This document shows positions 35,483 to 58,823 of a stretch of DNA of 64,000 nucleotides, one piece after another. The translations under genes were made by a program, and so were the position numbers. Under the pieces are notes generated by a model, which was not told where the DNA came from, ran no database searches, and was given only the letters and a program-made list of their open reading frames with translations. Source of the DNA: Candidatus Obscuribacteraceae bacterium (lineage in GTDB: Bacteria > Cyanobacteriota > Vampirovibrionia > Obscuribacterales > Obscuribacteraceae); the NCBI GenBank assembly GCA_044226015.1, contig JBGAHS010000006.1, positions 288,001 to 352,000 on the forward strand. The letters run 5' to 3'. Numbering within the stretch: the stretch's first letter is position 1; each line of letters begins with the position of its first letter.

Positions 35483-35695
35483 TTAACGAACCTCAAAAAT
35501 TGCAGCAAACAAAACTGCACAGATCTTCAATCTGTGCACGTCATTTCAAAAAATGATTCCTGTTTGACACGGACCTTCCTCTTTTCCGGAAAGCCCACCA
35601 TCCCCATGAAAAGATAATGCCGCCCGGACAATTTAATGTCAATGCGCAGTTCCGCATTTTTGCACTAATAGTTGTATTCCCGAATCCTTCGGGAC

Positions 35696-38600
35696 CTATT
35701 TTGCCCCCGCTGGAACAGATGTGCGTTCAGCCATCATCTTTTCGTATCGACTTCTGTAAACCGCGGCCTTATCAGGCTGACCGTTCCTCTCTAGAACGCT
35801 TGCGTAGTAGTTGAAGAGACCTATGGTTGAAGTGTCTTTCTCACCCTTGGCTCTTAGTCCAGCTTCAAGGGCCTTTTCGTAAGCATTGAAGGTTAATGCA
35901 ACTTGTTCTTTTGTACTTTCGCGATTGTCAGTTATCGTTTGACCGATCCACCAGAACGCTTCAAATGCGCGCTCAGCCTCCTCTTTACTCAAGGAGGCAA
36001 AATTCAGACTGGGAAGCTTATCGTTAACGGCTTTCAGATGTTCGATTGCTTTGTTTTTCGAACCGTCCTTATCCGTAAGCATCATTGGCTTCAAAGTTTG
36101 AAGAAGAGCTGCATACAACATGGTTTTGTCATGATCGCTCAGAGAAGGCGCTTTTAACAGCTCACTGATTTTCTCAACATTTTTCATGGCGGCACTCATT
36201 TCACCACATTGCATTTGAATTGCAGCGGCTTTAGCTAGCGAATAGCCTTCCTCAGCACGTTTTGCCGGGTCTTTTGCATAGATTCCCGCCGCTTCGAGGT
36301 TCAAGCTCAGGGCCTTGCCATAGTCGCGTGTCCTCTCCATCATTTGAGCAGCTCTCGAAATTGTATCGGCTGTCTCAACTGCATTTGGAGCATTCTTCTT
36401 GATCACATCAAGAGCCAATTCCGTCTGCGCTTTTATCTTCGAGGCATTGTAATAATATCCGTCACCCTTCATCATCGCAGAAGCGTAGCGCATTCGAGCC
36501 TGGGCAAGTTCAATGCTATCTGCTGGAAGAGCCTTTTCTCTTGCCGCTATAGACTGCTCCCAGAGCTGCTCGGATTCCCATTTTCTGGTCGAATTGCTTG
36601 CCTTCTTCTCAAGATCTTCAGCTTCATTACCAGTGTTAGGATTAGCCTTCAACCATTTATCAACCAGTTCATAAACCTGGTCAGATTTTGACGTCTCGAA
36701 TTTGTCCAGAACAGACTTGAAGGTCTCCCAAAACTCATTGTTTCGCTTGTCCTTGCCATCAAGACGGCTCTGCGCAACTTCAAGAAACTCTTTTATCAAA
36801 TGCATCTTGTTTGGATTGTCTTTTTCCAAACTTTCAATTTGTTTCTTCGCTTGAGCGCTTACCGAAGCATCAGAACTGCCCAGACAACTGATCACTTGCT
36901 TCCAGGCGCCTGACCAGAGTTTGTAGTCATCTTTTGTTAGTTTTGTATCTTTTGCAAGAACCTTATTTGCTAGCTCAAGACGAGCCTGCTCCGCGCCTCG
37001 GCCTGGCAGATTAGCCAGCAACTCCTTCAAAGCTTCGTCGTTCTTATCTATGGGATTTGAGATGCGAGCAATGGCATCTACGAAATGCTTCTGCATTTGA
37101 CTTTTCACAACGGCATCGTTGCTTTCGCTCAACTCAGAGAAAACTTTATAAGCCTGTATACGCATAGGGTCTCCGACCTTAACGCCTGAATTTGCGTCAA
37201 GTACACCGACTGCAAGCCCCATTCTTATTCTCTCACTGAGCCCATTTACTTGCAGCAGATCTCTTATCGCTGACAAACGTGGGTCATCAGATGATAGAGG
37301 TCGCGCCTTCATGTCTAAAGCAGCTTTCTCTAGAATTTGCCCCATTTCACTAAGTTGTGGTGACTTTGATTCTGGCAATTGGCTAATAAAAGAGTATGCC
37401 TTAAGAAGCTGTGCTTCAGCTTCAGGAGAGCGATTGCTTCCCCCATACAATTTGAGCATATGTTCCATTTTCGACTGTAGTATTTCTGGCCTCAGTGCCA
37501 GATGTGGTGGCAGTTTGAAATCAGAACTCTCACCAATTGCTTTCATGTAATTCTTTATGAGTTCACCATATTTTGGATCCTTCAGCATTTTCTCATGGTC
37601 TTGCTGCAGATCCGCAGCTAAGTTTCTCTGAGTTCTAACAAGTGTCTTCAAAGCATCAAGACTGTCATTCATAACTTTTGCAGCCGCCTCTTTTGGCATG
37701 GCCGCTAACAAGTCATAAGCTTCTTGCTTGGGAAACTCAGGCGTGATTCGAGCCAGAGCAACGTCAAGGTTTTCTGAACGAAGATTTTTCATCAACGATA
37801 TTGCATAAGGCTTATCAGCCGATTCTCCCATAGCTAACCGCGTAGTTTCCTCCACGGCAAGCTTAATAGTATCGTTGGCGACAGCGCGTTTTATTCCATT
37901 TGCCTTAAGTGTGTACTCAAGTGCTGCCATCTTCAAGTTATGGTCACCACTATTGATGGCATCTTTCAGCGGCGCCAATCGAGAGTCAGCGGCATCTTTT
38001 ATTTCCAGTGGAGTTTTGCTCTCTGCCATTTCTGCAAACATGGTGGCAAACTTCTTGCTTAAGGGGTGACTAGCACCCAATGTTGAGCTGGACAGAGTAG
38101 CCGCTCTAACAATTGCAGCCTGAGCCAGTCCAAGTTTGTCACTTGCCTCAAGACGCCTCAATGTCTCTTCAAGCGCTTTCTCGAGGCGCGCTGTATTTTC
38201 TGCAGAATCAGCTTTGAGATTTTTTACCGCATCAAGACTTCCATGCGCTGCAGCTGCAGAATCAGCGCCATCTAGTTTTGCTGAAATCAAAGCAGCTCTG
38301 GCTCTTATTTGTTCACTGTTTGCACCCTGGGACAACTCAGCCATCACGCGAGCAGCTGCGAATTGGTGCTCTTCAGTGAAATGTCCATTACTCTTGTCCA
38401 TGATGAAGTCAGCAGCTTTGTATCTGAGTTCCTCGGACTTGTTGCTCAAGGCAAACTTTGCATATACACTTGCTGCAAGCTTAAGATCTGTCTCCTTGAG
38501 ACCCCTATTCTCGGGAGAGAGTAGCAGCTCAGCAGCACGCACCCTCTGAATTTCCGAGAGTTTAGGATCATTCAGCGCCGACACAAGGAAGGGCACCCTC

Positions 38601-41600
38601 TGGTCAACTGCAGAGCGAATGCTCGGAAATTTTACACTAGATTCGCTAGATACCATTTGATCGACGATTCGAACAATACCATCATTCTTGCGCTTGAGAA
38701 TTTCCTGGTGTGCTTTGTTAGCAGACTCTCTGACTGAAGCATCTGAATGCTGAGTGGCAAAATATTTCAACGCCGGAATCATCTCTTTGTTTCCGAACCT
38801 CTGTAGCGTATCGAGCAACCTATTCTGATAGGCTACACTCTCGTTGTATCCTGCCTGACCTTGCCTTGGCATGAAGCGCATTTCCTGCTCAAGTGCTAGC
38901 GCAGCAATGCCGGCAGCTACCTCTGCATTCATTTTTCCTTTGTTTGGATCTGCAAGAGAATCAAGCGCATCCACAACTTTCTTTTTGTTATCTGCTGAAA
39001 GATCAATTTTCTCAGTCAACAAACTCTGCACGATCCAAGTCATATCGCCTCTTCCTGGACCGCTGTCCTTGCAGATTTTAGTGATTGCATCAACAGCCTT
39101 ATCGACAGCCTTAACTTTATCGGCATCTTCCAGCCCCAGTTCCTTGCCGTTACTCATAACAATGAAGGCGAGTGCTTTTCGTGCAAGAACACTTTGCGAA
39201 TCGTCGCCATCCTTCATCGCTTTTAGCATCAACTGATCAAATGACGACCACACATCGTTAATGACATTGGCTTTAGCATCTTTCTTCTTAGCTTCAAGTT
39301 CCTCTCTTCCCATGAGAAACTTGGTTAAGCCGCCGAGATTCGAAAGCATTTGGTTTACAGCCTGCCTCTCTGCTTCAAACCTTCCGGACCAGGTAAGAAG
39401 ACTCGAGTTTAGTTCCTTCGCAACTTGTCCCCACTTCCCCCACTCCCAGCTGAGAACGTCTTTGGGTCCCTCCAGCAGTGAAGCTCTTATTCGCTCAAAG
39501 GCTTGCTGATATTTTGCATTTCCTACCGCGCTAGTATTGTCCGGTCGTTCGGATGAGCCCAATCGAGGCTTATCTGGAGTATCAGAGATTGCTTTCTCCA
39601 CCATGCTTGAATCAATCCGTTTCAACTGATCAAGCATTGATTGGGCAAGTTTTGCTCTGCCAGTGGAGGAGCCATTTTTCACAATATCAGCACAGGCTTC
39701 TGCAATGCCATTGCGATCTAAAGATACAGGAGAATCCATCAAATATTGTGCAGCGGTTAGTCGCACCATGTCGTTCTTATCACGTAGAGCTTCTCGAAGC
39801 ACCGTCAAACGAGGGTCATCTTCACCCTTTATTGGCTCGACAAACATAGCCATATGCAGTGATTTTGAAACTGTATAGCCGTCTGCGTTTCTGTCAGCAA
39901 GTGCCTTGCCCATAAAATCAGCAAGTTTGTTTGCATCAGCCGGAGAATTAAATATTGAAGCAGGGTCATTCTTCTGCGCGTAGCGCAGCTCTAATTCAGC
40001 AGCTTTCCGCGCTAACTCATTTGATTCCGACTGATTATTTGACAATATTTTTGCAGCAGAAGATACAGAACGAAGTGGATGCGCGGCAGCATCACCATAG
40101 CCCGCAAAGACTTTCTGCTCTGTTCCGTCGGAACCAGATTTCGTGTAGACAGCACCATTTGCGTCAGTAAATCGTAAAGTTCCTCCGCGTCCACCCTCCA
40201 GAACCAGAAGTGTACCCTTATCAAAATTCCATGGCAGAACATTCATTCCTCTAAGAGATTCGGTTGATAGTATTTGCCCATCGGCACCCTTACCAACAAA
40301 TGAACCGTAGTTCTTATCCAATGACCAGGTTTGTACACTGTTGGCAGGCTTCGTTGTTACGCTTACATTTACTTTCTTTTCGTCACCCGTGAACACAAAC
40401 TCTTTTGTTTCTTTGCCACCAGGATATGTAAGAGTTATTTTGCGAGTATTCCCGCTCAATTCCTCTTCTATGAGCATTCCATTGACCTTCTGTACGTATG
40501 ATTTACCATCCTTTTTGTAGGTAAAATCACCGAAATCTCCTTTGACATTGAAACGGTCAAAGGTGCTCCACTGATATCGGTCAGTGGGACATGTCTCTGC
40601 TTTATTTAGCTGCACAGATGGTGCCTCTATCTTTTCTCCAGACTTAGTCTTGAAAAACTGAGGTTCTTGCGAATCGCGCTCAAAGACTTTACCAGAGGGA
40701 TACTCAGTAAATTTCACGACGCGGTCTTTCGAATCATATTCGAATTTGCGAATATTGCCAGCGTAATCAACCAGCTGAGGACGTCCGGCTGCATCAACAG
40801 ATTTAATTGGTTCTTTGTGCGATAGGGCATCGAGAATAGGAGCAATCTTCTCGCTCTTTAACTCTCGAAGGGCTTCAACAATTTTCTCCTGTAGCGCGAC
40901 ACTTTTTCCATATTCATCGTAGTTTGCAAGCGGGATTCGAGGCATACGCTTCAACTCAGCCTCAAGAACCCTTGCTAAAACAATTGCGGCCTCGTCCTTG
41001 CTTACTACTCCATTCTCTCCTGGCTTAAGTCCCATATATGAATCTACCAGCGAATGCCTGGCTGAGGCGCTTAGTGAGGGATTATTCAATAAAGCAGCTT
41101 CAAGTGGTCCGGCTAATTCACTTGCATATTTCTTAATCGCATCCATGTCTTTGTATGCATTGAAGATAGGTCCATACAATCCAGCTGCCGCTATTTCTGC
41201 GCTGTGTAATTCGGGATGGGTTACCGCATAGATGAGAGCTTTTCTGGCCTCAACACATTCTGGTTTGAAGGGATCAAACATCTTTCCAAAGCCATCAGAG
41301 CCCAGCGCCAGACTGCGTGCTTGAGACACCCAGAATTTTTCCGAACCATTCCGAGAAATCTTATTGTAGGTGTCTAAACCGTCATTTAGTAAGCCAGGTT
41401 TGGCGCGGTCGCGAACACGACTCTCCAATCGCTCGACTTCCTCCATAGCTTTGACAGGATCCATATCAGGACGTTGTCCGTATTCAAGATTTCTGAGGCG
41501 CGCCAGAACAGCTGGGTCCTTTTCGGTACGCAAAGCCTGCAATGCTATTTCATGAACTTCCAATGGCAGTGCTTTCTCTAAAGTCTTCACCGCTTGCAAC

Positions 41601-44600
41601 CGAACAACGGGAAAATCTGCTTGGACCTTATGTCCTTGATAGTCGCCTCCTGACAGTAACAATTTAGCTAAATCAGCAGCTTTATCGGGATTCATCTTTG
41701 TGAGCGCATCAAGTGCTGAAACACGCAGCTCTGGGCGCCCTGCTACATAATCGGGATAAAGTGTTCGGGAATCGAATGAACGAAAGTGCTGCCGTGCCTC
41801 TGGCATTAGCAGGGCTTCCAAATATCTCTGCGCTTTGCTTTGCTGTGCTTTGCTAGCACCTTCGAAAAGTTCAGGCATCTTATTCAACAGCACTTCGCGA
41901 AGTGCAAATCCTGCCTCTGTAGTAGGAGTATTTTTCAGGATTTTGAAAGTGCTTTCTCTTACTTGATCAGCTTTCTCAACTGACATATTTGCAAGCGTTG
42001 CCGCATCAATTTTTACCAGTGCAGCTATAGAAATTTCAGGGCTAGCCGTTTGTATACAATCAGCTAGAGCGTCCCCTATGATCTTCTGAGCCTTATCTTT
42101 CTTATCTCCGAATATTTCCGGACCTAAATCCTTCGCCGCTTGTGCAGCTTGAAGTCTTGCAACTAGCAATTCAACACGCTGATTGGGAGTCAAGTCTGTG
42201 TTGGGAGGTAAAGGATTCTCCAAAATTTTACGCAGATTACTTACATATGCATCACTGATGGCACCAGGCTTTGAACCAAGCAGCTTAGATTGTTTTGAAA
42301 GTTCTGCAATAGCGTCAGTTTGCTCATTGCTCAAGAAAAGCGCTCGTCCTTTATCCTTGTCCCCCACGATCACAGAGTCGCCTGACTTCACTTCCATCAA
42401 CTTGCCTTTGGGAACTGGTATATGGTCGCCATTTCTGGCAATCCAAACGGGACCATCCTTTGCAGCAACATATTGCTTGCCATCAGCTTCTATCTTAAAA
42501 ACTGCATGCGAAGGAACAATACCAGGACCATCGAGAATTACATCACCTTTGCTGCCAATTTCTACAAGAGAACCAGGAGTCACAGGTATACCATTCACAG
42601 TGGTTCGATCGAGAGCCACCATGCTCAGTGCCTGAGAGGCAAGAGCGCGAACATCTTTGTCAGCGGCGAGGTCAGAGGAAAGTCCTCGCAAGAATTTTTC
42701 GATAGACTTGGAGTCTCGTCCATAAAGACCGCTCAATCCATCGATGCGAGCATTATCGTCCGTCTCTCGAAGTAGCGCAGGTTCAACACTGGCTTTCAGG
42801 TGCTGTAGAATTGCGGCAAGCCGAGGACCATTAGCTGAAGCGATTGCGTCAAGCTTCACCTGCCGCGGAGTCTTATCACTCTGTATTACCGCCATCAAAG
42901 TGCTGGCAAAATCAGCAGCATTGTAATTTACTTTCTTTAGAAAGTCGTGGACATCATTCTGCGCATTTCTTAGCTGCTCAAGCTCATCTTTTGCAGTTTT
43001 TGCAGCAGTCTTCAGGTCTTCATTGTCAGGGTCTTTGGCAAGCTTTTCATTTGCTTCATTGTACTTCTTTTCGCCTTCAGCAGCCATTCGAGCATGAACA
43101 TTGAGGCTAGAGCTGCCCATTTGAGCTGTTCGGAAAAGCAAATCGCCTACAGCAATTTTAACTTCAGGATCGTCGCTGTTTCTGACTCTCTTATTGAGGT
43201 AGTCTAATACACCTGCAACTGTCTGATTTGTATTTGGAATTTGCGAGGTCAAACTATCATTGCCTCTGAGCGAAAGCAAGACTATCGCCGCAGCGACTTT
43301 CTCACGCTCTGTTCCAGACCAAAATTTGTCATCGGCATCTTTGAGAAGCTTCTTCCGGTCCGCATCGTCAGGCGATTTCAAAACACTTTCAGTCAAGCGG
43401 CTTAGAAGTCCTTCGGCAGAGCGATTATTGAATGTCGCTACATCATTGATATCGAGAGCGGACTTAGCATCTAGAGGACTAAGCTTTCCATCTTTTCCCA
43501 TAGACAATTGCAAAAGAGCTTTAGCAGCAGCATACTTCTCTGATGGCTCAGAAGGATTCTTATAAATATTCGCAAGCTCTTGTCTGTATGCTTCTCGGTC
43601 CTCATCACTTGGTGACTTGCTCAAGAGTTCTGTGCTTTTATGAGCTATGGCTTCTGGGCTGCGCGCCAACTTCTGTTGTAAGTCAGAAGTACTTATTCCC
43701 ATTACTTGCTCTGGATACTTTCCTTCAGCATCCTTTGACAAATTGAGAAGAGCCGCAGCGATTGCATATTTTTTCGCATCAGTCGCAGTCTTCCATTCTT
43801 CAGCAAGTTTGACTGAAAGCTTTACTCTGTCAGGATTGTTTGCAGGAAGTTTTATTGCTTCCTTAGCTGCATTTCCAATCTGCTCACTCTCTGCAGATTG
43901 ATTTTTGTTTCCTAATCGCTTGATGTATTCATCAATCGTAGGCTTCATTGCTTGCTTGAACTGCTCATCGGTAGCTTCCGAAGGGTTTGCATACAGTGGC
44001 TTGTCTTTATCACGTGCGATTTTGTGACGTTCCATTGCATCAAAAAGCATAGCTCTTTGAGGGTCATTCTTGTCTTTAATGGCAGCGGCAGTATCGCTAA
44101 ACTGAGCAAGGAAGTAACAATCAGCCAGTGGAAATACTCCAATAGGCAAGACTCTTCCGATCACGGGAAGCTTCCATCCCTCATACAGTTTATGTGCACC
44201 GCGTACTGCAGTGTCATACAACCCCATGGTCATCTTCACTTCAGTGCCAGCCGCCACAACTCTACCGAGTTTGTATGCTTCGACTGCACTTTCCGCCTCT
44301 TTTGCTGTTCTTCCCCACTTAAAGACGTTTACAGAATTCCAAACAGCCTTTTGTGCACCCGCAGGCAACATTCCAATCGAAATATCAGCAAGTATGACGT
44401 AATGCCGCGCTTCGTTTATTTTCCTTCCATAACCAAAAGGCGTCAGGTTTTCGATTGCCTGTTTTCCAAAACCAGTAGCACCGAGTGCGAAGTGCCATGC
44501 CCCCTCTTTTACAGCGGCTTTAAAAACCTGTGTACCTGTCATTTTCATTGCTTTTGCAGCCATTGCAGCCGCACGAGCTTCATACAGACCACTAACAATC

Positions 44601-47600
44601 ATGCCAGCGTCTACTGTTGCGTTTACAACGTTACCAGTCTGTTTAGCCCGTTCCTGAGCTGTCTGCCAGTCACTCAACTTCCCAGCAGGCATCAAGCGCA
44701 TTCGACCATTATCAAATATTGGAACATAATCGTTTTTGTGAAAGACTTTTGCTTCCATTGTAGGTTTTTTATGGACGCTATCGACTCCCCACCAATTGTT
44801 GTAACTGTAGAACCGTGCCCATTGGTAGTCCTGATATCCAGTGACTTTCACATAGTCGCCTTTGGGATTTTCCTTGCCGTCTTTATCGCAAGGAACCGAA
44901 TCAAAACTATAACGTTTCAAGTTGAACTCTTCACCATTAGGCGCCCGCTTGCCCAGTTCATAGGAGCCATCGGGCTTAACTGCTAAGACTCGCCAATCTC
45001 CTTGTCCATCTGCTAGCCGAACAAATTTGCCAACATCACTTTCATCGCCTTTCAAAAGAGAAGGACTCTTGGGATCTTTTGGATTTTCTAGATTTGCTTT
45101 CTTGAAGGCTTCGACCTCTTCCTTCTTAACTTTGTGCTCACGCTCAAAATCGCCTTCTTCAACATGGACCAGCAAGCGGTCTTTCTCTGCCAATGCCAGA
45201 GTTAGTTCCTTTGTGACTTTATCGACAGCCGGAGACCATTTGGTTAACCAACGTTCCATCTTCTCAATCTTGGCGATGTTGGCTGGGTTGTTTCTATCAA
45301 TTCCTTCCGGCATATCAAGTTCAACCTTCACAGTGCCGTTTGAATTGCGCGTGAGCTTTCCAGGGAAATCGGGGTCTTTCAACGCGTCATCAGGAAATGT
45401 TGTAGCAGCCGCGCCCACATCCTTTTGCCATTTGAAGAAGTCATTCAAGCTTGGCCAGTCTCTTCCATGTGTAGTAGTGGCCGCGTTAAATGCTGCAATT
45501 GTTTCAGCGTAAGTTCTTACCCGATTTGCTGTTTCGATCCATGGAAGAGCACCAGCACGCCAGCGCAGCATTTCCTCAGGGCTGCCATCTTTTGGGGGAT
45601 TCCAATCAACAGGTTTAAGGCTAGGTATTTTCGATAATGACTCTTGAGTGTAGGCAACCTGCCCCGCAAGAACTGATTCATTATGGGACGCCTGTGCTTT
45701 AATAGTCCAAGCAAAAGCTCTAATGAACTTAGCTACGTCTTCCTCTGTCGGAAGCTGAGCATCTTTGATTTCTGAGAAATTCAAATTCGGCTTCACATCG
45801 CCAGCTCTCAGTCGTGCCCTGAACAGAGCATCGCCCTCTCTCATCTGGCTGCCACTCTCACTGATACCAGGTCCATACACAGCACCCGGAGGAAACTGTA
45901 AACCGCGCATATCTAGCATCTTCATCCAGTCAAGCGATTCGTTCTCCATGACTTTGCTTGCTTCTTGCCATAAGCGCTTCGACTCTGGTCCAAATTCACC
46001 GCGATCCCATTCATCCTTTAGTTTTTTCTCGTCAATAATGGGAACTCCAGCCTTTTTGTCCAATAGGGCTTTTTCATTTTGAATGGCAAGATTTCTTTGA
46101 ATGCCTGGCAACAACAGCATAAGAATATCAGTCGTCATCTTGCGATCAGGAAGCAAATCAAGTTTTGCTAGCACGGGTTTATCCGCAGCATCCTTTGCTT
46201 TGTCTCCAGATTGATTATCAGCAAGATCTTCATGGGTTGGGCGTTTGTAACCTGAGCCAGGTTTCTCCATTACGTCAGGGACGAACCCTGCTTTCAAGCC
46301 TGCATCTTCTGGAGCGAACTCAGGCACAGATTCATGGTCAGGAGCCGGACGACCTTCATAAGCGCCTGCTTTTATCTCAGCGGGAGGGGCAGCGGCAGCA
46401 GCCTTCTCACGGTAGGCTATGAAAGCACTTGCAAGAATAGTTAGCGCTACAAGCTTTCCTCGTACTGCACCACCTGGTCCTCTCTCCCCAGCGAGTCGTT
46501 CGATATCAGTTTCACTTGGGCGAAATCCCTTTATGATCTCTCGTGCTCTAGCCTCTGCTCTTATGCGATCAGGATTCTCTTTATCAGCGATCTTAAGTTG
46601 ATCAACGAACTTGCTTTCTGCGTCTATGGCAACCTTTAACTCGGCTATTTTTCGTTTATCTTGGTCTTTTTCTGCCTTACCTTCCTCAGCCTGCAGTTTT
46701 TCCTTCAGCCCTTTGATGCGACCTTCCCATAACTCTGCAAAGGTGACATCTCTATCAAAGCCACCAATCTTAACTCCAGTACTCGTAATCTCCAGTGCCG
46801 CAACTTTAGACGACAAGGGTGGAAGCTTGGAGACATCGAGCGCTGTAGCACTGCCTGTTACCGTTCCGACTTCGGATGGAAGTTCAACGTGGCGCGCAAG
46901 CGACTTGCTGACAAAATCGCGAACACCTGCACGGTCAGCCAAAGCAGCGGCGTCAGTGCCTCGAGACGTCTGCTCTACTACAAGAGAATAAACGGCTCTG
47001 CTAAGTTCACCAACATTGCCCCGCACAAGACCTTCGGGAAGCACGATTTTTGTCATGACTTTATCGGGAGCAATTTCAGTCTTGCTACCTTCGACATAGA
47101 ATTTGCCGTCGCTCCGAGTTACTTTCTTGTTCTCAGCGGTGCTGTATTCCACAGTTGCTTTTGTGGCGTCCTTTGAAATCTCGACATCAGTGTTGTTTTC
47201 AATGAGAAGAGAATCCTTAATTCCTTCTGCCTTTAGGAAATCAAATACGCTATCTCTCAACCTGGCACCGGCATCAAGAGGCGAATTCCGCAGTGAATTG
47301 CTGATTTCATTTACTTTTTCGTGAAACCTGCCAATGACTCCTTCATTTAGCAGTGATTTGTTGACGTTCAAACTCTCCACCGCAGATGGTGTCACGCTCG
47401 CTTCACGTTCCTTAAGTCTCTCTTGAATCAACCCGAGTCTTTCCTTGATGAGCTCGGCATTGGCACCATCTGGAATACCAAGTGCTTTACCCAACTTCTC
47501 TGGACTCATCTCGTCCAGAGCATAGTAGGTGTGAAACCAGCCTTCAGATCCTTTATTTGCGGTAGCTCTCTCGTGAGCCTCTAACTTCAAGTGCTCGTAG

Positions 47601-50600
47601 ATGCTCTTCAGTTCCTCTCCGGGTTTAGCATTTTCAATTGCAGCTTTAAGGGCTGCGCTGAATTCGGATTGCCCGGACGCCTCGGGCATAAGAGTCTTCA
47701 CAGCCAGTTCGGAATAAGCAATATTCAGACCTTGCTCTGCACTCAGACTTGGTTTAAGTGCACGAATTTCCGCAGCTTTCATGGATAGTTCTACTGCGTC
47801 TTTTGCAGAAACCCCACGAGTAATTTCCAGCATCGCTGCCTCTCTGGCAACAGCGGCATCAACTTTTTCAGCTTTGACTATGGCTTCTTGCCTGCTCAAG
47901 ATAGCATCTGCAGTCTTAGTGTCTACCTTGTACTTTGACTCGATTTCAATCACAGCTGCCATACGCTGGATAACTTCAGTTGCTTCCTTCTTCCCTCCTG
48001 TACGTTTGTATATTTCGCTAGCTGTAGCTTCGTCGATTCCCTCTGCCTTTTGCAGTATGTCGCCAAGGCGATTAATTCTATTTGCAGCTTGCGATAAAGG
48101 CGCACTTTGGCTCACCACGACTTCGAATACGCGAGCAAGCTCATTCGAAGATTTGAAATCGATAGGGTTGCTAGCACTAACATCACAAAGTGCTCTAAGA
48201 TGCTCTTTCATTTGAGCTAGTCTTGTGTGCGCTGGTCTGGCCACATCAAGCTGAGCTTCCACGATGTGAGCGAGGTCGCTTATATGACCTAGATCAATCT
48301 GTTTTTCTCTTCTTCCTGTCTTATCTCGAAACTCACTCATACCGATGATAGAGCCATCTTCATAAAGTCGAACCTTATGCACTTCTTTTAGTACTGAATT
48401 ATCGAGTTCGACCTCCTTGTACTTCATTGGCTTTCCGGTGGCTGCACTTCTTCTCGGTTCATATTCTTCCGAACCAGTATCAACACTGACGTCGGATTTT
48501 CCAGGACCCCCTTTCAGGTCCACTCCTCCCCAAGCTGAAGAGATGGCATCGTGTTCGAACCCTTTTACAAGCCTGTCACCCAGAGCTTTTAACGCATTGT
48601 AGTGCGGCAGTGCACTATTAGCACGGTGGTAGAGTTCCGCAAGCACCGGGTTTGCTGGAGTTTGACCACGAAAATAATCATGGAATCGCTTTATTCCCAC
48701 AGACTCTGCATATCTCTGATCTAACCCTAACCTACCAAAAGAGAGAAACGATGAGCGCATATCTTTATTGATTGTCGAAGCTTCTATAGATGGATGTTTG
48801 CCGACAAAACCTTGAACATATGAGCGCATCTCGGTCTCGTTTGCATTTGCCAGGCTTGAACCAATGGTTCCATCGGGTGGCACATGATTCCCGATAGCAG
48901 ATTCAGCAGGAGACCCTGCCCAGATTGCCTTACCCTTTGCCTCTTTTGTATAAAGGCTTCGAGTCCAGTCGATCGGATAAACTCTGTCTCCTTTCGGGTC
49001 AAGAAATATACCATCGATGCCGCAAGCATCAGCATTCGAGCCATGCGCTGCTGGAATGAAAACCAATTTGCCTTTCGAAGGAATTTCTTCCTTACATGCT
49101 TTCATAGCAGCTATTGACGCGTTGTACTCGTAAATATTACCTCTAGTGTCACTAGCATGAGGGGCTTTGAAATGTGGCGCTACTTCTAGATAGCGACTCC
49201 TTGCAAACTCGAGTACTTCTTTACTTACTTTGGGATCCAGAAAATGTGAATAGGGAATTTCCAATGCTTCCGCGTTCATCGGAATATTGATCAAGTCCGC
49301 AAAAACCCTCATTCTATCGGGTCCAAAGTTCTTTGCAAAACCAGGTTGTTTGAGGACATCAATTGCTTTTGTTAGCTCAGGAATTTTGTCTGGCTGAGCT
49401 TGTGCCAGTTGAATCATTTCAGATTTAATTCGCTCAACAAGCGCTGGCTCCATTCCAGCGTCGCGCATTTGATCTAACGGTGCAAGTTTCTGAGCAATCT
49501 CATTTACTGCAACGACTTTCTGAGATTCGAGCAGGCTGAGCTTAGCAAGATCTATCGGTAAACTAGCGTCTTTTGATACGGCTGAAACAAGGTCGAGCAA
49601 GGCTTGCCTTTTTGCGACATCCATTCCATTTCTGGTATCACCTATCTTTTCGATCGCATTGAGTGCACTCTGGCAAGCCTCCAGCCTATCACGATTGGAG
49701 CCGCTTCCTTCGCCTTTAGAAAGTACATCCACTTCCTTCAGCAGATTTGCATGAGCAGTCTTCAGTCGTTCTATAGCTTCGGGTTTAATACCGGCTTTTG
49801 CAAGGTCTTGCGCGGCTCTGTTCATATCAAAGCTTGACACCATTGCTGTTCCAATAATATCAGCGGCTTTATTCGTGCCTTCTGGAGCGTGTACATCAAT
49901 TGATTTTGGAAACTTACCTGTCTCTGAAAGTGTTAAAGCACGTTCAGCCAGTGCATTCACTTGCGCAATGGACAATTTAGTTTCCCTGGCGAAACGCTCT
50001 CTTGCTTCCCTCCTCTCGGCTTGCCCCTGAGGGTTCAATTCGTCAGAAACCTTTTTGATTTGAGCACGAACTTCAGCTGGAATTTCTCTTTCGGAAAAAT
50101 ACTTGAAGACTCCATTTATAGAGCCACCATAATTTCCTTTCCGGTCAATCTGCGGTGTACCATCTTTATTGAAAGCGTAATCAGTATCAATACGTGCGAT
50201 AGCAACATCCCCTGGATTGGGTCCCGTTCTCTCCACAACGAAGTTCAAACCATGCTGATCGTGATCACCCATAAGAGCACTAAAAGCAACAGTGCGAGCT
50301 ATTTCTGTGCGTAATTTCGGATCAATTTTATCCATCATGTGAAAGACTCGCTCATCTAGATGCGAATATTTCGCACGCAGTGCCGCATCTTCGCGCGACA
50401 TATTGTGCAGGAATGTATGCAGGTTAGAACCTTCAACACCCACGAACTTCTGAATCATCATGCCATCGCGCATAACGGTTGCAGGAAAGAGACCACTTGA
50501 ACCCATTCGTTCCGCGAGCTTTTGTGCAGCTAGATCATTATCAGCTCGAACCCAATCACGCACGTAAGCCGGCGGTTTGTGAATCATAACTTTTATGCGT

Positions 50601-53248
50601 TCACCATTTGGTCCTTCTACAGAACCAATAAAGAGGTTATGACCGGAATTTCCATCAGTCCACCTACAGTCAATATTAACTCTCGAACGGGGGTCAGCTA
50701 GTATTGATTTAACATCAATAGATTTGTGAGCTTCTCGAATCGCTGGATTTTCATGCAGCAGCTCAGGGAGTGCTACCTTCGTCTTGACCGCTTGCTCGTG
50801 TCTTACGCGAACTTCACCGCTTGCCTCGTCATATGCAACAACACGCCATTTTTGAATTTCACCAGTGCTTCTTTGATAATTGACTTCTTCCCCTGGTTTA
50901 GGTACATGGTCACCGTTAAACTTACGGTACTCTTCGCTACCCATGATTCTTTCACTTGGGCGAACAAGCTCTATTTTACCGTCAACAATTCCATTGACGA
51001 TCCATTTTCTGCTACCAAAAGAGACCTCTCTTCCAGGTTCAAGACCATACTCCTTTGCTTTGGCTGGTGCCTCTTCGGCCTTCACAGGTGGTGTCACTAC
51101 TTTCTGCTCAACCTGACGTTGTGCTTCAGCGAAAGCAGCCTCATTATTCCGTTTCAGATCTTCAATCGAAACTGTTCTCTCGTAGGACAAGTCCTTGGTG
51201 AAAACAAGATCTTTTTTCGTATCAGGATCTTTGTAGCCAATTAAACGCCAGCCATCATCTATAGCTCCACCAGTTCGTCTAAGCTTGTAAGTCTCACCTA
51301 AGCGCAACTCTCTACCGGGGTTCAGTTCGTTAACACTTTCTACGGAAGCATCCTTTGATCCCGAGCCAACAATCACGGCTTTCCCCGATTTAGCATCGAT
51401 GGATTTTACTTGCCAAACTAAATCACTGTATCCTACCTTTTGCCCGATTAATCGGTCATATACGTTTTGCTCATTGCCCGCTACAACTGGCTTAGCAGGA
51501 GCATCTTGTGGGCGCAACTGGGGTACTTCCAAGCCTGGTTGATGCGATGGACGCGCTTCTCTGGGCTCACCATAAATCATTTGACGAGGGTCAAATATCT
51601 TCTCCCTTCCACCAACTGCTAGAGTTGTCCAAGCATGATTCAACGCATATTCAGGCGCCAAGCCAGCGGGGTCTCCGCCACAATAACCTTTTATGACCTT
51701 CATCTGAGGACGCTCAGAATCATTTGGATAGAATGAATCGAATACAACTTTGGTTAGAACTGCCTGGTGATTACAGACCCCGGCGCCAGTTCGATTTTTT
51801 GCGGCTTCTAAGAAATCCCCCAGCATCAACCGTCCGCCAGCATGTTCTGCACGAAGTTTGTAATAGCCTTCATCGACAGCCTTGTCGCTCCATCCGGATG
51901 GTTCCAACGCTGCTTTGGCTCTTTTGGCTATCTCTCTAGCTAGTTCTTCGGGGCGATCTTTTAAATGTGAGAGTTCCTTCTTGCACTCCTCGATGAATTT
52001 CGTCAGGGCTGGGTCTTTCCCAGGACGAGTATCAACAACATAAGATGGTCTTGTTTTATCATTGTGATGGCCATTTTCATCAATTCGATTCTGACCACCA
52101 ACAACCTGGAATCCATCAGGAATACGTCCTGAGAATTCATGATTTTTCAAATAAACGTTTGAGGCATCTCTAGCCGTTTGGCTTGCGGCGATATCAGCTT
52201 GGTCTTTGGCGGACTGGTCAGCGTTTGGCTCAATCTTCTCGGCCTTGTAGCCCCCTGGCTTCCACGCTTGTTTCGATGCATCATACACTCCCCAGGGCAA
52301 TAGAATGTCGCGCCCAAGGCGAATCTGATCACCAGGTTTTAACTCAACACCCTTAGCATCTACTGGTATCGTCTTTCCGTCACGAAGAATAGCTGTTCCA
52401 TTTTTACTTCCAAGATCTTGAATAATTACCTTTCCATCAACCTGGCTAAGCAGCGCATGACGCCTACTAACTTGCTCACTACTTATATTGATTTCTGAGT
52501 CAGAGCTGCGCCCTATAATAAGTACATCCCCTGAGGGTAGCTTCATTTCGCTTGCTTGATCTCTTGCATTAGAACGCACACCAATTCTAAAGCCCTCCCA
52601 TTTATTCTCGCCAGTTCGCACACTGGCTATGCTGGGAAAATCCATCAGATCAACAGAACGTTTGACGAGAGGTCTTTCATCAGGTGCGAAATTCTCAGTA
52701 TCAAATGCGGTATTAGAAAGCATCAATTCAGGGGCAGCCTGAGCTACTGCCTCTGGTGGCAAGCCTGCCACCGTCTGGAGTGGCGCAGCCGACAAATTTC
52801 TCATATCTGACATCACATCTGGTGTCAGTTCTTTGCCATTGCCATTGCTTTGTTCACCATGCTCAAGTTCAGCTGAGATGTCCTCAACATCCTCTTGAGC
52901 CTCATCCACTTGTGATATTGGCGAGTCGACGGAAGCATCTTTTTGTTTGGGTTCATCCTCCTTCGATTTGTCCACGTTTAAAGCATCGGCAAATATGCTT
53001 TTCAGCAGCAGCTCAGCATCATCAAGTCCCTTGTCTTTCTTACTCTTTCGAAGCTTGCTATCGAACAATGAGTCAGCTTCAAAACCTAGCCTGTCTTCTG
53101 CATCCTCATGGTGACGAGCAGTTTCTCTTTCGACATCCTTTTCCTCCTGCCGCTGAGCAGATTTATCGTCTGCTTTAGTGTCTGTGCTCTCCCTTTTGTC
53201 CTCGTTGTCCTCATCGGTATCAACGTCAATTTTCTTTGGATCAGGCAT
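35696..53248 (-). CDS. Giant multidomain protein (~5850 aa): FHA, transglutaminase/EDR1-like, PI3/4-kinase/HipA-like, PD-(D/E)XK-like, hydrophobic segment, second FHA, HEAT, YD-like and TPR repeats
   Basis: Uninterrupted 17.5-kb ORF; start MPDPKK at 53248 with agggga RBS; motifs GRSS..SRRH..SKNGT, GVCNHQ..NHAW..IFDP, GDHDQHGLN..IDTDYAF, DACGID..PIDWT. Confidence 0.88.
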   Translation of the reverse strand: MPDPKKIDVDTDEDNEDKRESTDTKADDKSAQRQEEKDVERETARHHEDAEDRLGFEADSLFDSKLRKSKKDKGLDDAELLLKSIFADALNVDKSKEDEPKQKDASVDSPISQVDEAQEDVEDISAELEHGEQSNGNGKELTPDVMSDMRNLSAAPLQTVAGLPPEAVAQAAPELMLSNTAFDTENFAPDERPLVKRSVDLMDFPSIASVRTGENKWEGFRIGVRSNARDQASEMKLPSGDVLIIGRSSDSEINISSEQVSRRHALLSQVDGKVIIQDLGSKNGTAILRDGKTIPVDAKGVELKPGDQIRLGRDILLPWGVYDASKQAWKPGGYKAEKIEPNADQSAKDQADIAASQTARDASNVYLKNHEFSGRIPDGFQVVGGQNRIDENGHHNDKTRPSYVVDTRPGKDPALTKFIEECKKELSHLKDRPEELAREIAKRAKAALEPSGWSDKAVDEGYYKLRAEHAGGRLMLGDFLEAAKNRTGAGVCNHQAVLTKVVFDSFYPNDSERPQMKVIKGYCGGDPAGLAPEYALNHAWTTLAVGGREKIFDPRQMIYGEPREARPSHQPGLEVPQLRPQDAPAKPVVAGNEQNVYDRLIGQKVGYSDLVWQVKSIDAKSGKAVIVGSGSKDASVESVNELNPGRELRLGETYKLRRTGGAIDDGWRLIGYKDPDTKKDLVFTKDLSYERTVSIEDLKRNNEAAFAEAQRQVEQKVVTPPVKAEEAPAKAKEYGLEPGREVSFGSRKWIVNGIVDGKIELVRPSERIMGSEEYRKFNGDHVPKPGEEVNYQRSTGEIQKWRVVAYDEASGEVRVRHEQAVKTKVALPELLHENPAIREAHKSIDVKSILADPRSRVNIDCRWTDGNSGHNLFIGSVEGPNGERIKVMIHKPPAYVRDWVRADNDLAAQKLAERMGSSGLFPATVMRDGMMIQKFVGVEGSNLHTFLHNMSREDAALRAKYSHLDERVFHMMDKIDPKLRTEIARTVAFSALMGDHDQHGLNFVVERTGPNPGDVAIARIDTDYAFNKDGTPQIDRKGNYGGSINGVFKYFSEREIPAEVRAQIKKVSDELNPQGQAERREARERFARETKLSIAQVNALAERALTLSETGKFPKSIDVHAPEGTNKAADIIGTAMVSSFDMNRAAQDLAKAGIKPEAIERLKTAHANLLKEVDVLSKGEGSGSNRDRLEACQSALNAIEKIGDTRNGMDVAKRQALLDLVSAVSKDASLPIDLAKLSLLESQKVVAVNEIAQKLAPLDQMRDAGMEPALVERIKSEMIQLAQAQPDKIPELTKAIDVLKQPGFAKNFGPDRMRVFADLINIPMNAEALEIPYSHFLDPKVSKEVLEFARSRYLEVAPHFKAPHASDTRGNIYEYNASIAAMKACKEEIPSKGKLVFIPAAHGSNADACGIDGIFLDPKGDRVYPIDWTRSLYTKEAKGKAIWAGSPAESAIGNHVPPDGTIGSSLANANETEMRSYVQGFVGKHPSIEASTINKDMRSSFLSFGRLGLDQRYAESVGIKRFHDYFRGQTPANPVLAELYHRANSALPHYNALKALGDRLVKGFEHDAISSAWGGVDLKGGPGKSDVSVDTGSEEYEPRRSAATGKPMKYKEVELDNSVLKEVHKVRLYEDGSIIGMSEFRDKTGRREKQIDLGHISDLAHIVEAQLDVARPAHTRLAQMKEHLRALCDVSASNPIDFKSSNELARVFEVVVSQSAPLSQAANRINRLGDILQKAEGIDEATASEIYKRTGGKKEATEVIQRMAAVIEIESKYKVDTKTADAILSRQEAIVKAEKVDAAVAREAAMLEITRGVSAKDAVELSMKAAEIRALKPSLSAEQGLNIAYSELAVKTLMPEASGQSEFSAALKAAIENAKPGEELKSIYEHLKLEAHERATANKGSEGWFHTYYALDEMSPEKLGKALGIPDGANAELIKERLGLIQERLKEREASVTPSAVESLNVNKSLLNEGVIGRFHEKVNEISNSLRNSPLDAGARLRDSVFDFLKAEGIKDSLLIENNTDVEISKDATKATVEYSTAENKKVTRSDGKFYVEGSKTEIAPDKVMTKIVLPEGLVRGNVGELSRAVYSLVVEQTSRGTDAAALADRAGVRDFVSKSLARHVELPSEVGTVTGSATALDVSKLPPLSSKVAALEITSTGVKIGGFDRDVTFAELWEGRIKGLKEKLQAEEGKAEKDQDKRKIAELKVAIDAESKFVDQLKIADKENPDRIRAEARAREIIKGFRPSETDIERLAGERGPGGAVRGKLVALTILASAFIAYREKAAAAAPPAEIKAGAYEGRPAPDHESVPEFAPEDAGLKAGFVPDVMEKPGSGYKRPTHEDLADNQSGDKAKDAADKPVLAKLDLLPDRKMTTDILMLLLPGIQRNLAIQNEKALLDKKAGVPIIDEKKLKDEWDRGEFGPESKRLWQEASKVMENESLDWMKMLDMRGLQFPPGAVYGPGISESGSQMREGDALFRARLRAGDVKPNLNFSEIKDAQLPTEEDVAKFIRAFAWTIKAQASHNESVLAGQVAYTQESLSKIPSLKPVDWNPPKDGSPEEMLRWRAGALPWIETANRVRTYAETIAAFNAATTTHGRDWPSLNDFFKWQKDVGAAATTFPDDALKDPDFPGKLTRNSNGTVKVELDMPEGIDRNNPANIAKIEKMERWLTKWSPAVDKVTKELTLALAEKDRLLVHVEEGDFEREHKVKKEEVEAFKKANLENPKDPKSPSLLKGDESDVGKFVRLADGQGDWRVLAVKPDGSYELGKRAPNGEEFNLKRYSFDSVPCDKDGKENPKGDYVKVTGYQDYQWARFYSYNNWWGVDSVHKKPTMEAKVFHKNDYVPIFDNGRMRLMPAGKLSDWQTAQERAKQTGNVVNATVDAGMIVSGLYEARAAAMAAKAMKMTGTQVFKAAVKEGAWHFALGATGFGKQAIENLTPFGYGRKINEARHYVILADISIGMLPAGAQKAVWNSVNVFKWGRTAKEAESAVEAYKLGRVVAAGTEVKMTMGLYDTAVRGAHKLYEGWKLPVIGRVLPIGVFPLADCYFLAQFSDTAAAIKDKNDPQRAMLFDAMERHKIARDKDKPLYANPSEATDEQFKQAMKPTIDEYIKRLGNKNQSAESEQIGNAAKEAIKLPANNPDRVKLSVKLAEEWKTATDAKKYAIAAALLNLSKDAEGKYPEQVMGISTSDLQQKLARSPEAIAHKSTELLSKSPSDEDREAYRQELANIYKNPSEPSEKYAAAKALLQLSMGKDGKLSPLDAKSALDINDVATFNNRSAEGLLSRLTESVLKSPDDADRKKLLKDADDKFWSGTEREKVAAAIVLLSLRGNDSLTSQIPNTNQTVAGVLDYLNKRVRNSDDPEVKIAVGDLLFRTAQMGSSSLNVHARMAAEGEKKYNEANEKLAKDPDNEDLKTAAKTAKDELEQLRNAQNDVHDFLKKVNYNAADFASTLMAVIQSDKTPRQVKLDAIASANGPRLAAILQHLKASVEPALLRETDDNARIDGLSGLYGRDSKSIEKFLRGLSSDLAADKDVRALASQALSMVALDRTTVNGIPVTPGSLVEIGSKGDVILDGPGIVPSHAVFKIEADGKQYVAAKDGPVWIARNGDHIPVPKGKLMEVKSGDSVIVGDKDKGRALFLSNEQTDAIAELSKQSKLLGSKPGAISDAYVSNLRKILENPLPPNTDLTPNQRVELLVARLQAAQAAKDLGPEIFGDKKDKAQKIIGDALADCIQTASPEISIAALVKIDAATLANMSVEKADQVRESTFKILKNTPTTEAGFALREVLLNKMPELFEGASKAQQSKAQRYLEALLMPEARQHFRSFDSRTLYPDYVAGRPELRVSALDALTKMNPDKAADLAKLLLSGGDYQGHKVQADFPVVRLQAVKTLEKALPLEVHEIALQALRTEKDPAVLARLRNLEYGQRPDMDPVKAMEEVERLESRVRDRAKPGLLNDGLDTYNKISRNGSEKFWVSQARSLALGSDGFGKMFDPFKPECVEARKALIYAVTHPELHSAEIAAAGLYGPIFNAYKDMDAIKKYASELAGPLEAALLNNPSLSASARHSLVDSYMGLKPGENGVVSKDEAAIVLARVLEAELKRMPRIPLANYDEYGKSVALQEKIVEALRELKSEKIAPILDALSHKEPIKSVDAAGRPQLVDYAGNIRKFEYDSKDRVVKFTEYPSGKVFERDSQEPQFFKTKSGEKIEAPSVQLNKAETCPTDRYQWSTFDRFNVKGDFGDFTYKKDGKSYVQKVNGMLIEEELSGNTRKITLTYPGGKETKEFVFTGDEKKVNVSVTTKPANSVQTWSLDKNYGSFVGKGADGQILSTESLRGMNVLPWNFDKGTLLVLEGGRGGTLRFTDANGAVYTKSGSDGTEQKVFAGYGDAAAHPLRSVSSAAKILSNNQSESNELARKAAELELRYAQKNDPASIFNSPADANKLADFMGKALADRNADGYTVSKSLHMAMFVEPIKGEDDPRLTVLREALRDKNDMVRLTAAQYLMDSPVSLDRNGIAEACADIVKNGSSTGRAKLAQSMLDQLKRIDSSMVEKAISDTPDKPRLGSSERPDNTSAVGNAKYQQAFERIRASLLEGPKDVLSWEWGKWGQVAKELNSSLLTWSGRFEAERQAVNQMLSNLGGLTKFLMGREELEAKKKDAKANVINDVWSSFDQLMLKAMKDGDDSQSVLARKALAFIVMSNGKELGLEDADKVKAVDKAVDAITKICKDSGPGRGDMTWIVQSLLTEKIDLSADNKKKVVDALDSLADPNKGKMNAEVAAGIAALALEQEMRFMPRQGQAGYNESVAYQNRLLDTLQRFGNKEMIPALKYFATQHSDASVRESANKAHQEILKRKNDGIVRIVDQMVSSESSVKFPSIRSAVDQRVPFLVSALNDPKLSEIQRVRAAELLLSPENRGLKETDLKLAASVYAKFALSNKSEELRYKAADFIMDKSNGHFTEEHQFAAARVMAELSQGANSEQIRARAALISAKLDGADSAAAAHGSLDAVKNLKADSAENTARLEKALEETLRRLEASDKLGLAQAAIVRAATLSSSTLGASHPLSKKFATMFAEMAESKTPLEIKDAADSRLAPLKDAINSGDHNLKMAALEYTLKANGIKRAVANDTIKLAVEETTRLAMGESADKPYAISLMKNLRSENLDVALARITPEFPKQEAYDLLAAMPKEAAAKVMNDSLDALKTLVRTQRNLAADLQQDHEKMLKDPKYGELIKNYMKAIGESSDFKLPPHLALRPEILQSKMEHMLKLYGGSNRSPEAEAQLLKAYSFISQLPESKSPQLSEMGQILEKAALDMKARPLSSDDPRLSAIRDLLQVNGLSERIRMGLAVGVLDANSGVKVGDPMRIQAYKVFSELSESNDAVVKSQMQKHFVDAIARISNPIDKNDEALKELLANLPGRGAEQARLELANKVLAKDTKLTKDDYKLWSGAWKQVISCLGSSDASVSAQAKKQIESLEKDNPNKMHLIKEFLEVAQSRLDGKDKRNNEFWETFKSVLDKFETSKSDQVYELVDKWLKANPNTGNEAEDLEKKASNSTRKWESEQLWEQSIAAREKALPADSIELAQARMRYASAMMKGDGYYYNASKIKAQTELALDVIKKNAPNAVETADTISRAAQMMERTRDYGKALSLNLEAAGIYAKDPAKRAEEGYSLAKAAAIQMQCGEMSAAMKNVEKISELLKAPSLSDHDKTMLYAALLQTLKPMMLTDKDGSKNKAIEHLKAVNDKLPSLNFASLSKEEAERAFEAFWWIGQTITDNRESTKEQVALTFNAYEKALEAGLRAKGEKDTSTIGLFNYYASVLERNGQPDKAAVYRSRYEKMMAERTSVPAGAK

Positions 53249-53546
53249 TAAACTTCCCCTAAGCACAGTTACTCTTAGAGATTTACCCGCATAACTCGAA
53301 AGCCTAGACCAGCGCAGGATAGCAATTAATGTGAAAACTGATTTCTTGCGAACTTCCGCATCAGAGCTACAGAAACGTGAATTTTAAGCTCATCGTGGAC
53401 TCGCACAGTTCGCGCCAATTCTAATCAGATAAATTCTGATGCGGTTATCCCCATGTACAACAAACCGAGACTAACTTATCATCCTGACATGTGCGTGACA
53501 GGGCGGGCTGCGCTGGATATCGAACTAAGCGGAAACATGAATTTCT

Positions 53547-58037: not shown

Positions 58038-58823
58038 ATGCAGAATGTTAATACAAATTGGCTGGAAATAGGAAGAGAAATCTTCCTGTATCAATCATGC
58101 GACTTTTACTTGTACCAGACAGCGTGCCTGCTTGAAATCCCAAATGAAAGTTTCAGCTCCACTGAAGATGATCTGATCTATCATCTCGGCGCTGACTTAG
58201 TTGTTCTAAAAGCCGTTCCTATGAGGTCCCTGGTAATACAAAAGGCTCTAAACAATGCACTTGCAGAAGCCAAAGAGAGCTCAACCATCAGCCTTATATC
58301 TAAGAAACTAGAAGAGCTGCTCGATTTAACTGTTGAGGCAAAAGCTGAATTTTTCTCGAAAATAGGCACAGTCAATCGGGACGTTTCAATAGAAAAGCTG
58401 TTCTTCCACCTCAGCAGCAGCAATGAGAAACTTGTCCATTTTAAAGAAGATTCTCTTGATCTAGCTGGAGACTACTTCTGCCGTGAAATCTGCAAAGAAT
58501 TTGCCTGTTTTCCAAATATCAAAAGTTTGAACCTATCCAATTGCAATCTGACGGACAGCGACTTGTCTTTCCTTCAGTCCCTGTCTCAGCTGAAATCGCT
58601 GAACTTGAGCAATAATCCTGTAAGCAGCATCGGACTGCGGAATTTAAATGCTTATTTGATCGAAGAACTAAATCTGGCAAACACTAATTTTAATGCCAGC
58701 GGAACAATGCAATTGAGAAAGTTCCATTCGCTTCGCTCACTCACACTGCCATCGACTTTCGATCAACTATCGATGGATTCCCTGAGCAGTTCATTGATCA
58801 ACTGCTACATCACTCGCGAGTGA
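58038..58823 (+). CDS. Leucine-rich repeat protein; degenerate paralogue of the C-terminal half of 53547-56114
   Basis: IKSLNLSNCNLTD, LKSLNLSNNPV, EELNLANT; N-terminal collinear similarity to the protease domain. Confidence 0.8.
   Translation: MQNVNTNWLEIGREIFLYQSCDFYLYQTACLLEIPNESFSSTEDDLIYHLGADLVVLKAVPMRSLVIQKALNNALAEAKESSTISLISKKLEELLDLTVEAKAEFFSKIGTVNRDVSIEKLFFHLSSSNEKLVHFKEDSLDLAGDYFCREICKEFACFPNIKSLNLSNCNLTDSDLSFLQSLSQLKSLNLSNNPVSSIGLRNLNAYLIEELNLANTNFNASGTMQLRKFHSLRSLTLPSTFDQLSMDSLSSSLINCYITRE

Follow-up and report, generated by a model that had tools for sequence, protein, structure and literature searches.

A giant Obscuribacteraceae gene that fuses a variable passenger to a conserved carrier: a likely multi-toxin with putative kinase-fold guards

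What is the role of a single bacterial gene of 17.5 kb in which several enzyme-like domains precede a weakly hydrophobic region and a long series of repeats? The question arises in a Candidatus Obscuribacteraceae bacterium, on a stretch of 64,000 nucleotides (hereafter the window) from contig JBGAHS010000006.1 of assembly GCA_044226015.1, whose minus strand carries such a gene at 35696-53248. Obscuribacterales are uncultured, non-photosynthetic relatives of cyanobacteria that have large genomes and no established lifestyle. An initial annotation, made from the letters alone, read the gene as a different class of multi-cargo effector or as a giant signalling hub. We find that it joins two proteins in frame, a variable passenger and a conserved carrier, and we judge it likely, with a probability of roughly 0.55, that its product is a secreted multi-toxin, likely kept harmless in the producing cell by two neighbouring kinase-fold proteins.

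One gene from two families

The gene is a single uninterrupted reading frame of 5850 codons from the ATG at 53248 and of 5856 codons (35696-53266) from a GTG at 53266; residue numbers throughout follow the 5856-residue form, and all parts of the giant named below lie on the minus strand. Its GC content of 45-48% is that of its flanks, and no DNA repeats of note were found. A chimeric assembly might be suspected, given that the genome (G000; 8.19 Mb) comes in 13 contigs, is 92% complete and contains elsewhere a VirB4-like paralogue split in two frames. However, in a 2016 sample from another study one contig spans 37682-53900 without a gap and with 16 letters different, and a second contig covers 34000-37709, whereas no RNA sample was listed as carrying the sequence; the 20 differences that fall within the giant gene comprise 12 synonymous changes, 8 non-synonymous changes and no stop. 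Two homologues, P0002 and P0003 (5826 and 5854 residues), are 55% and 52% identical to the giant and colinear with it over 96%. Because the junction lies within one contig of an independent sample and two diverged homologues are colinear, the gene is not chimeric, and we put the residual chance of such an artefact close to nil. The single gene first described thus stands, its junction held by an independent contig.

Residues 1-2290 form the passenger, made of an FHA domain, a Cys-His-Asp domain, an atypical kinase-like domain, a nuclease-like domain and a block that ends in a hydrophobic helix. The carrier takes up residues 2400-5856, and in it a core of about 600 residues of no known family is followed by HEAT, YD and TPR repeats. 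The initial annotation had noticed the block (46397-47404) but missed its role as the C-terminal end of a passenger, and although the multi-cargo part of its interpretation holds up, it overlooked both the fusion of two gene families and the kinase-fold genes K1 and K2 at 56111-57966. Residues 1956-2290 correspond to the C-terminus of two other genes of the same genome, one of them directly downstream, where identity is 49% over residues 1956-2280. In three genomes (G086, G089 and G028; loci L052, L053 and L016) the block closes one gene and the core opens the next. Among 149 core representatives, 122 have a core that begins in the first 350 residues, and only 7 have one that begins beyond residue 900. 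Fusions occur in the clade of the window and, separately, in G084 from another clade, and fusion is retained in at least six sequences. The downstream gene (32228-35482, minus strand) encodes a stand-alone passenger of 1084 residues that shares the block of the giant and has a different N-terminal module; its N-terminal 600 residues are common to passengers of two other clades. On the minus strand between the two genes, the segment 35501-35642 contains terminator-like hairpins at 35516-35538 and 35501-35519 and a sigma-70-like site at 35614-35642, all of them consensus matches only.

The carrier appears confined to this lineage. A profile of residues 2400-3010 found the core family in 60 of 96 genomes of the family and in none of 204 genomes from ten other families of the class; 326 clusters were recovered among 1.84 billion representatives, and all seven core loci from named genomes belong to Ca. 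Obscuribacterales or Obscuribacter. In a typical carrier the core lies near the N-terminus and is followed by HEAT, YD-like and TPR regions, and core-only members of 650-700 residues also exist. In the giant, core A (45137-46039) matches no known family, and core B (44087-44974) contains conserved, Gly/Ala-rich, weakly hydrophobic helices at 44087-44644. An Atlas search linked core B to PT-TG with a score of 0.85, below the range of reliable recognition, and we retain this as a weak lead only; against Pfam, 51 core sequences matched inserted FHA domains alone, and none matched PT-TG at E<=0.1. The core and block profiles are unrelated. A degenerate FHA-like domain (42347-42589) scores E=0.074 alone and 52 bits with a family profile. 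It is followed by HEAT-like repeat regions (36767-42289; E=4e-5 on fragments) that enclose a YD/RHS-like stretch (40067-40819; E=2e-4), and by a TPR region (35699-36769; E=2e-4 on a fragment). A search of 136 carrier leaders for a common motif gave none that held up, since no more than 9% of the held-out sequences exceeded the 95th percentile of shuffles; these leaders are distinguished by acidity only (20 versus 12 D/E per 110 residues).

Enzyme-like cargo and its kinase-fold neighbours

All enzyme-like domains lie within residues 250-1480 of the 5856, behind an acidic, poorly conserved leader (52592-53248) without a signal-peptide-like hydrophobic stretch. The FHA domain (52313-52519, residues 250-318), which has the expected GR, SxxH and N positions, is the sole firm Pfam match when the whole protein is the query (E=3e-15). 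The Cys-His-Asp domain (51467-52189) resembles the EDR1/CTR1-like peptidase/transglutaminase domains: its triad of C498, H544 and D559 is conserved in 25 of 27 distinct homologous domains, and PF14381 (EDR1/CTR1/ARMC3 peptidase-like), which matches the domain of the giant at E=0.056, matches homologues above the Pfam cut-off, with values down to 5e-12. Two related beta modules (50732-51469, residues 600-845) match each other and usually follow the peptidase domain.

The two remaining domains are less securely assigned. The atypical kinase-like domain (49892-50689, residues 860-1125) keeps its motif residues (K897, D1001-H-D1003, N1008 and D1027) in 4/4 aligned sequences, and these residues resemble the catalytic motifs of HipA and PI3/4-kinases (DxH/DxxxxN and DxxxxF-type). 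Family leads are weak, consisting of HipA_C (E=0.041) and LepB_N (E=0.053) in Pfam and an Atlas cluster, ranked 11th, in which 38% of the members carry PI3_PI4_kinase, and a PDB sequence search with this domain gave no match. The nuclease-like domain (48827-49309) has three acidic residues, E1380, D1418 and D1433, that are invariant in 8/8 sequences; it matches no family and has no Lys two residues past the last acidic residue, and a restriction-endonuclease fold is presumed from the motif only, PD-(D/E)xK nucleases having the pattern E...D...(D/E)xK. NCBIfam yielded nothing beyond FHA, and PDB sequence searches gave FHA matches only for the giant and nothing convincing from the core, kinase, peptidase or nuclease profiles. 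Every feature of the initial annotation was thus recovered where it had been placed, from the FHA domain and the triad to the HEAT-like, YD-like and TPR stretches, most of them with weak or no family scores.

The enzyme set varies while the scaffold is kept. A relative of 6.35k residues shares residues 1960-5121 at 37%, and in place of the enzymes of the window it carries a dual-specificity phosphatase, HExxH motifs and a PRTase-CE-like region. Other passengers bear AvrB-like, poly(A)-polymerase RNA-binding or methyltransferase domains. With the kinase-like domain alone as the query, seven shorter proteins were recovered, of which six, judged by eye, have the string of FHA, peptidase, beta modules and kinase followed by a terminal tail. 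The enzyme domains of the giant also occur at the C-termini of giants that contain YD/RHS or annexin domains. If the product is a toxin, its peptidase/transglutaminase, kinase-like and nuclease-like domains would damage bacterial cells.

Such cargo could also be aimed at eukaryotic microbes, whether prey or host, in which case K1 and K2 would only hold the cargo inactive before export. The PI3/4-kinase and LepB_N leads, the dual-specificity phosphatase, AvrB-like and annexin domains of related proteins, and the inclusion in the class of an algal predator for which use of a type IV secretion system has been proposed (PMC4451040) would suit a set of lipid-kinase-like, phosphatase and peptidase effectors. 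Yet related giants carry LysM and lysostaphin-like domains, the existence of diversified arrays and of orphan copies of K1 suggests defence against variants from other bacteria, and none of the papers listed by a literature search on Obscuribacter and protists names Obscuribacter. We consider this explanation rather improbable.

The genes that suggest immunity lie 2.8-4.7 kb upstream of the giant. K1 (56111-57046, minus strand) encodes a Hanks-type kinase with the Lys, HGDLKPEN and DPG motifs, and K2 (57043-57966, minus strand) a pseudokinase without the catalytic Asp; both are Pfam Pkinase genes that recur beside related passengers. Across 104 genomes, 25 of 41 K1 matches lie within 15 kb of a peptidase-domain match, 21 of these without an atypical kinase nearby, and 11 of 14 K2 matches lie within 15 kb of an atypical kinase match. 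K1 directly follows genes with a peptidase domain near the C-terminus at four loci (L158, L161, L162 and L164), and it forms arrays of five and three diverged copies at L157 and L163, with 57-79% identity among those of L157. By position, K1 thus goes with the peptidase domain and K2 with the atypical kinase, an arrangement like that of immunity genes. An antitoxin can itself be a kinase, acting by phosphorylation of its toxin. K1 may serve as immunity protein or regulator of the peptidase domain, perhaps neutralising it through a phosphorylation that the adjacent FHA domain reads, and K2 may be an immunity protein or regulator of the atypical kinase, perhaps neutralising it by binding. Adjacent immunity genes are a mark of polymorphic toxins, as described by Zhang et al. 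2012 (PMC3482391), and we regard a toxin-immunity system as probable. Because the enzyme set is shuffled, the scaffold is kept and immunity-like genes stand beside two of the enzyme domains, the evidence favours the proposal that this is a different class of multi-cargo effector.

The strongest competing explanation keeps the protein inside the cell, as a hub for signalling or for stress or defence that is controlled by phosphorylation. Here K1 would phosphorylate, the FHA domain would read the mark, K2 would act as an allosteric pseudokinase, the tails would anchor passengers at the inner membrane or on a scaffold, and the enzymes would strike components of their own cell. FHA domains frequently lie ahead of the peptidase domain, the catalytic loop of K1 is intact in 24 of 28 copies (19 of 28 have all three strict patterns), many tails have the hydrophobicity needed to cross a membrane, the giant has no signal peptide, and its genome, 92% complete, has no FHIPEP (FlhA/SctV), VipB or WXG100 match as a marker of type III, VI or VII secretion. 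A hub would hardly be expected, though, to swap its enzyme modules among clades and into RHS-type giants, or to leave diverged tandem K1 arrays behind a single peptidase gene and K1 orphans, as immunity genes do according to the same survey (PMC3482391). PADLOC anti-phage models, moreover, matched no family in either half of the giant. We therefore rank the hub below a secreted effector, as an unlikely reading that still precedes the eukaryote-directed one. The genome of the giant has only two K1 genes, and the second is an orphan (C10:460131-461066) behind a 126-residue gene, with no peptidase-domain gene among its listed surroundings.

Tails, carriers and a possible export route

Genes adjacent to carriers frequently share one kind of ending, in which a charged helical hairpin is followed by a linker rich in glycine, a hydrophobic helix and a short tail. 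In the giant the same elements make up the C-terminal block, with its hydrophobic helix at 46415-46471, and in unfused relatives they form the end of the protein; the block has no Pfam or NCBIfam match. Tails are present in 18 of 59 carrier neighbours versus 17 of 3170 genes of the genome of the giant, by a rule that was defined after tails had been seen, and a tail profile recognised only one of six held-out tails accepted by eye. Among nine loci reached through kinase or nuclease matches in which a gene ends in a tail, a carrier core lies nearby in six (including L140, which duplicates G110), two have no carrier in the stretch and one lies at a contig end.

Tail similarity tracks core similarity. 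Over 26 units the Mantel rho is 0.45, and in 21 of them (3.1 expected) the tail with the highest similarity comes from one of the three closest cores; these units were picked by eye, and kinship and linkage inflate the statistic. Of same-genome pairs, 9/10 have tail scores at background level. The core tree is a quick version with long branches. Enzymes, then, move across clades, and tails remain with carriers. We give an even chance to the idea that the hairpin and hydrophobic helix of a passenger dock on the core of its cognate carrier. Free passengers such as that at 32228-35482 might in this way ride on the carrier of the window, and fusion would render the link permanent; the Gly/Ala-rich helices of the core may insert into the target membrane, and the HEAT, YD and TPR repeats may bind or shield. 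At three loci (L145:9331-10611, L154:7828-9108 and L141:10711-11673), small stand-alone HEAT proteins homologous to the carrier repeats lie between passenger and carrier.

How might a protein without a signal peptide leave the cell? The genome encodes, at C10:63035-71720 (L101, L102), a VirB4-like gene, small membrane protein genes, a VirD4-like gene and a replication-relaxation gene, a cluster that is highly conserved across the order; a search of the same genome with CagE/VirB4 (PF03135) gave no match. The VirB4-like gene is present in 102 of 103 family genomes. Of 99 genomes of the order, 92 encode the coupling protein, usually as the single one of its type, whereas 201 genomes from elsewhere gave no match (E<=1e-30). 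In G007, a K1 gene and an RHS giant with a peptidase domain sit between the coupling-protein and replication-relaxation genes. Export of the giant through this order-wide VirB4/VirD4 module is a possibility that we advance tentatively. Type IV and Tad pili are also encoded in the genome, and a second VirB4-like paralogue (C1:183271-185976), the one split in two frames, lies beside TadE-like genes.

The tail could instead be a type IV secretion signal, XVIPCD- or BID-like, with the carrier an unrelated effector or adhesin of the same islands and the fusion an incidental read-through. A variable N-terminal enzyme ahead of a conserved C-terminal domain is the layout of X-Tfe effectors (PMC8740702), and tail-bearing passengers without a nearby carrier are known (L142, L143 and three or four in the genome of the giant). 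Genomes mostly have one coupling protein, however, and yet tails of the same genome are unlike one another and track the carrier clade; fusion, too, has arisen in two clades and been retained. This explanation is very improbable in our estimation, and it ranks with the eukaryote-directed effector behind the hub.

Several observations weigh against a secreted, guarded multi-toxin. Signalling systems are equally characterised by an FHA domain together with an active-looking kinase, and in plants EDR1 domains occur fused to kinases (PMC10318531). A listed K1 lies within 15 kb of only 20 of 87 peptidase matches, at a strict K1 cut-off that missed known neighbours, and in the genome of the giant no K1 was seen next to two peptidase genes whose triads are intact. 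No guard gene for the nuclease-like domain emerged; the leucine-rich repeat (LRR) genes beside nuclease domains are homologous in their repeats only. The hydrophobic segment of the initial annotation is present but marginal: in the core, the best 19-residue hydropathy has a median of 1.35 and reaches 1.6 or more in 7 of 51 sequences. Neighbouring genes are co-inherited, so co-variation of tail and core need not signify binding, and the dissimilarity of tails within a genome argues against their being a signal for the coupling protein. Linkage of effector genes to the VirB4/VirD4 module is seen in one genome only (G007), and the module accompanies a replication-relaxation gene, occurs also in genomes without a core match and may equally transport DNA.

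Other genes near the giant are harder to place. A protein of 855 residues (53547-56114, plus strand), with a Gly/Ala-rich N-terminal part, an HExxH motif and C-terminal LRRs, lies between the giant and K1; it has several paralogues in the genome, and its membership in the system is uncertain. Beyond K2, a Pfam LRR protein of 261 residues (58038-58823, plus strand) is a possible third guard, and its N-terminal part has no counterpart among three LRR genes found beside other nuclease domains. From 60555 to 63998 and past the end of the window runs the end of a 3565-residue protein with a signal-peptide-like start, the part inside the window having no Pfam match. In G007, a NADAR/GP30.3-like gene (L160:10452-12056) that faces the end of the RHS giant is a possible guard of another kind.

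The giant is also one of many. Its genome has 78 genes of at least 1500 residues, up to 14,391, many with signal-peptide-like starts. Six further giants (C12:364671-387932, C11:406378-421575, C6:382299-391682, C3:280331-305280, C5:113839-123069 and C11:1122786-1130378) have acidic leaders, no signal peptide, and RHS/YD, annexin, LysM, FHA, PRTase-CE or phosphatase domains; several of them have cargo regions in common with passengers. Elsewhere, a frame of 18,420 codons in G025 (C1, L148-L150) contains five FHA-associated atypical kinase copies with a K2-like gene nearby, and one of 17,447 codons in G094 (C138) contains two peptidase domains.

Relation to known systems

If a toxin-immunity layout does recur as an arsenal across the family, it would imply that Obscuribacterales fight or prey on other cells. 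Our findings provide a 600-residue core of no known family, a possible code by which tails dock on carriers, and two candidate cognate pairs of small size, the peptidase with K1 and the kinase with K2. More ambitiously, Obscuribacteraceae may possess an undescribed two-component toxin delivery system in which carriers with a new membrane-inserting core load interchangeable multi-enzyme passengers through cognate C-terminal helices, a minimal, order-specific type IV apparatus exports them and a kinase and a pseudokinase confer immunity, with the peptidase-kinase pair perhaps paralleling plant EDR1/CTR1; taken as a whole, this picture is doubtful. A literature search that extended to freely searchable sources, with subscription journals and supplements outside it, found no description of such a system and no kinase-fold immunity proteins for polymorphic toxins; these domains may nonetheless appear in the tables of PMC3482391 or in later domain surveys.

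The MARTX and large clostridial toxins, with which the giant was first compared, are very large single chains in which several enzyme domains are combined with repeats and a helical region of weak hydrophobicity. The resemblance holds for layout only. Regular expressions found no RTX nonapeptide, Rhs core, CPD, Hint or LPxTG pattern in the giant, in agreement with the initial annotation on the first three; glycine-rich RTX repeats are absent, a CPD autoprotease has no match in Pfam, NCBIfam or PDB, and neither the N-terminal glucosyltransferase nor the CPD and delivery domain of the clostridial toxins was found. Unlike these toxins, the giant was built by fusing two gene families and has immunity-like neighbours. 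It shares with Rhs/YD toxins a short YD-like stretch, but this is about 250 residues long and C-terminal to the cargo, and the long YD shell that ends in the Rhs core motif PxxxxDPxG ahead of the toxin is missing.

In plant EDR1/CTR1 kinases, an EDR1 peptidase-like domain is likewise paired with a Ser/Thr kinase, as PMC10318531 describes, whereas here the two are separate genes and most peptidase domains (25/27) have the full triad. The giant proteins of Omnitrophota (10.1101/2023.11.21.568195) are similar in being multi-domain products of uncultured bacteria with a proposed action on other cells, and differ from the giant described here in that it has no clear transmembrane arrays; the names Vampirovibrio-, Melainabacteria and Obscuribacter are absent from that text. 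XVIPCD-bearing effectors and the BID proteins of Bartonella (PMC6509941) share with the passengers a variable N-terminal enzyme, a conserved C-terminal block and a VirD4-like coupling protein in the genome, but the block of the giant has no family match, ends in a hydrophobic helix and follows the carrier rather than the genome.

The closest parallel is with polymorphic toxins, in which, according to PMC3482391, enzyme domains recombine on a conserved trafficking part beside linked immunity-like genes and extra cassettes, and nucleases, peptidases and kinases serve as cargo. The replacement of putative toxin domains on a retained, presumably trafficking part is seen here as well. In the giant, however, several cargo domains stand in series and N-terminal to the conserved part (the same domains are C-terminal in other giants), that part matches no known trafficking or secretion domain in Pfam or NCBIfam, passenger and carrier are usually separate genes, and the putative guards are kinase-fold proteins encoded upstream. 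Our best reading thus places the giant among polymorphic toxin-immunity systems, as one whose carrier-passenger design is new; it is real, lineage-specific and undescribed in searchable sources.

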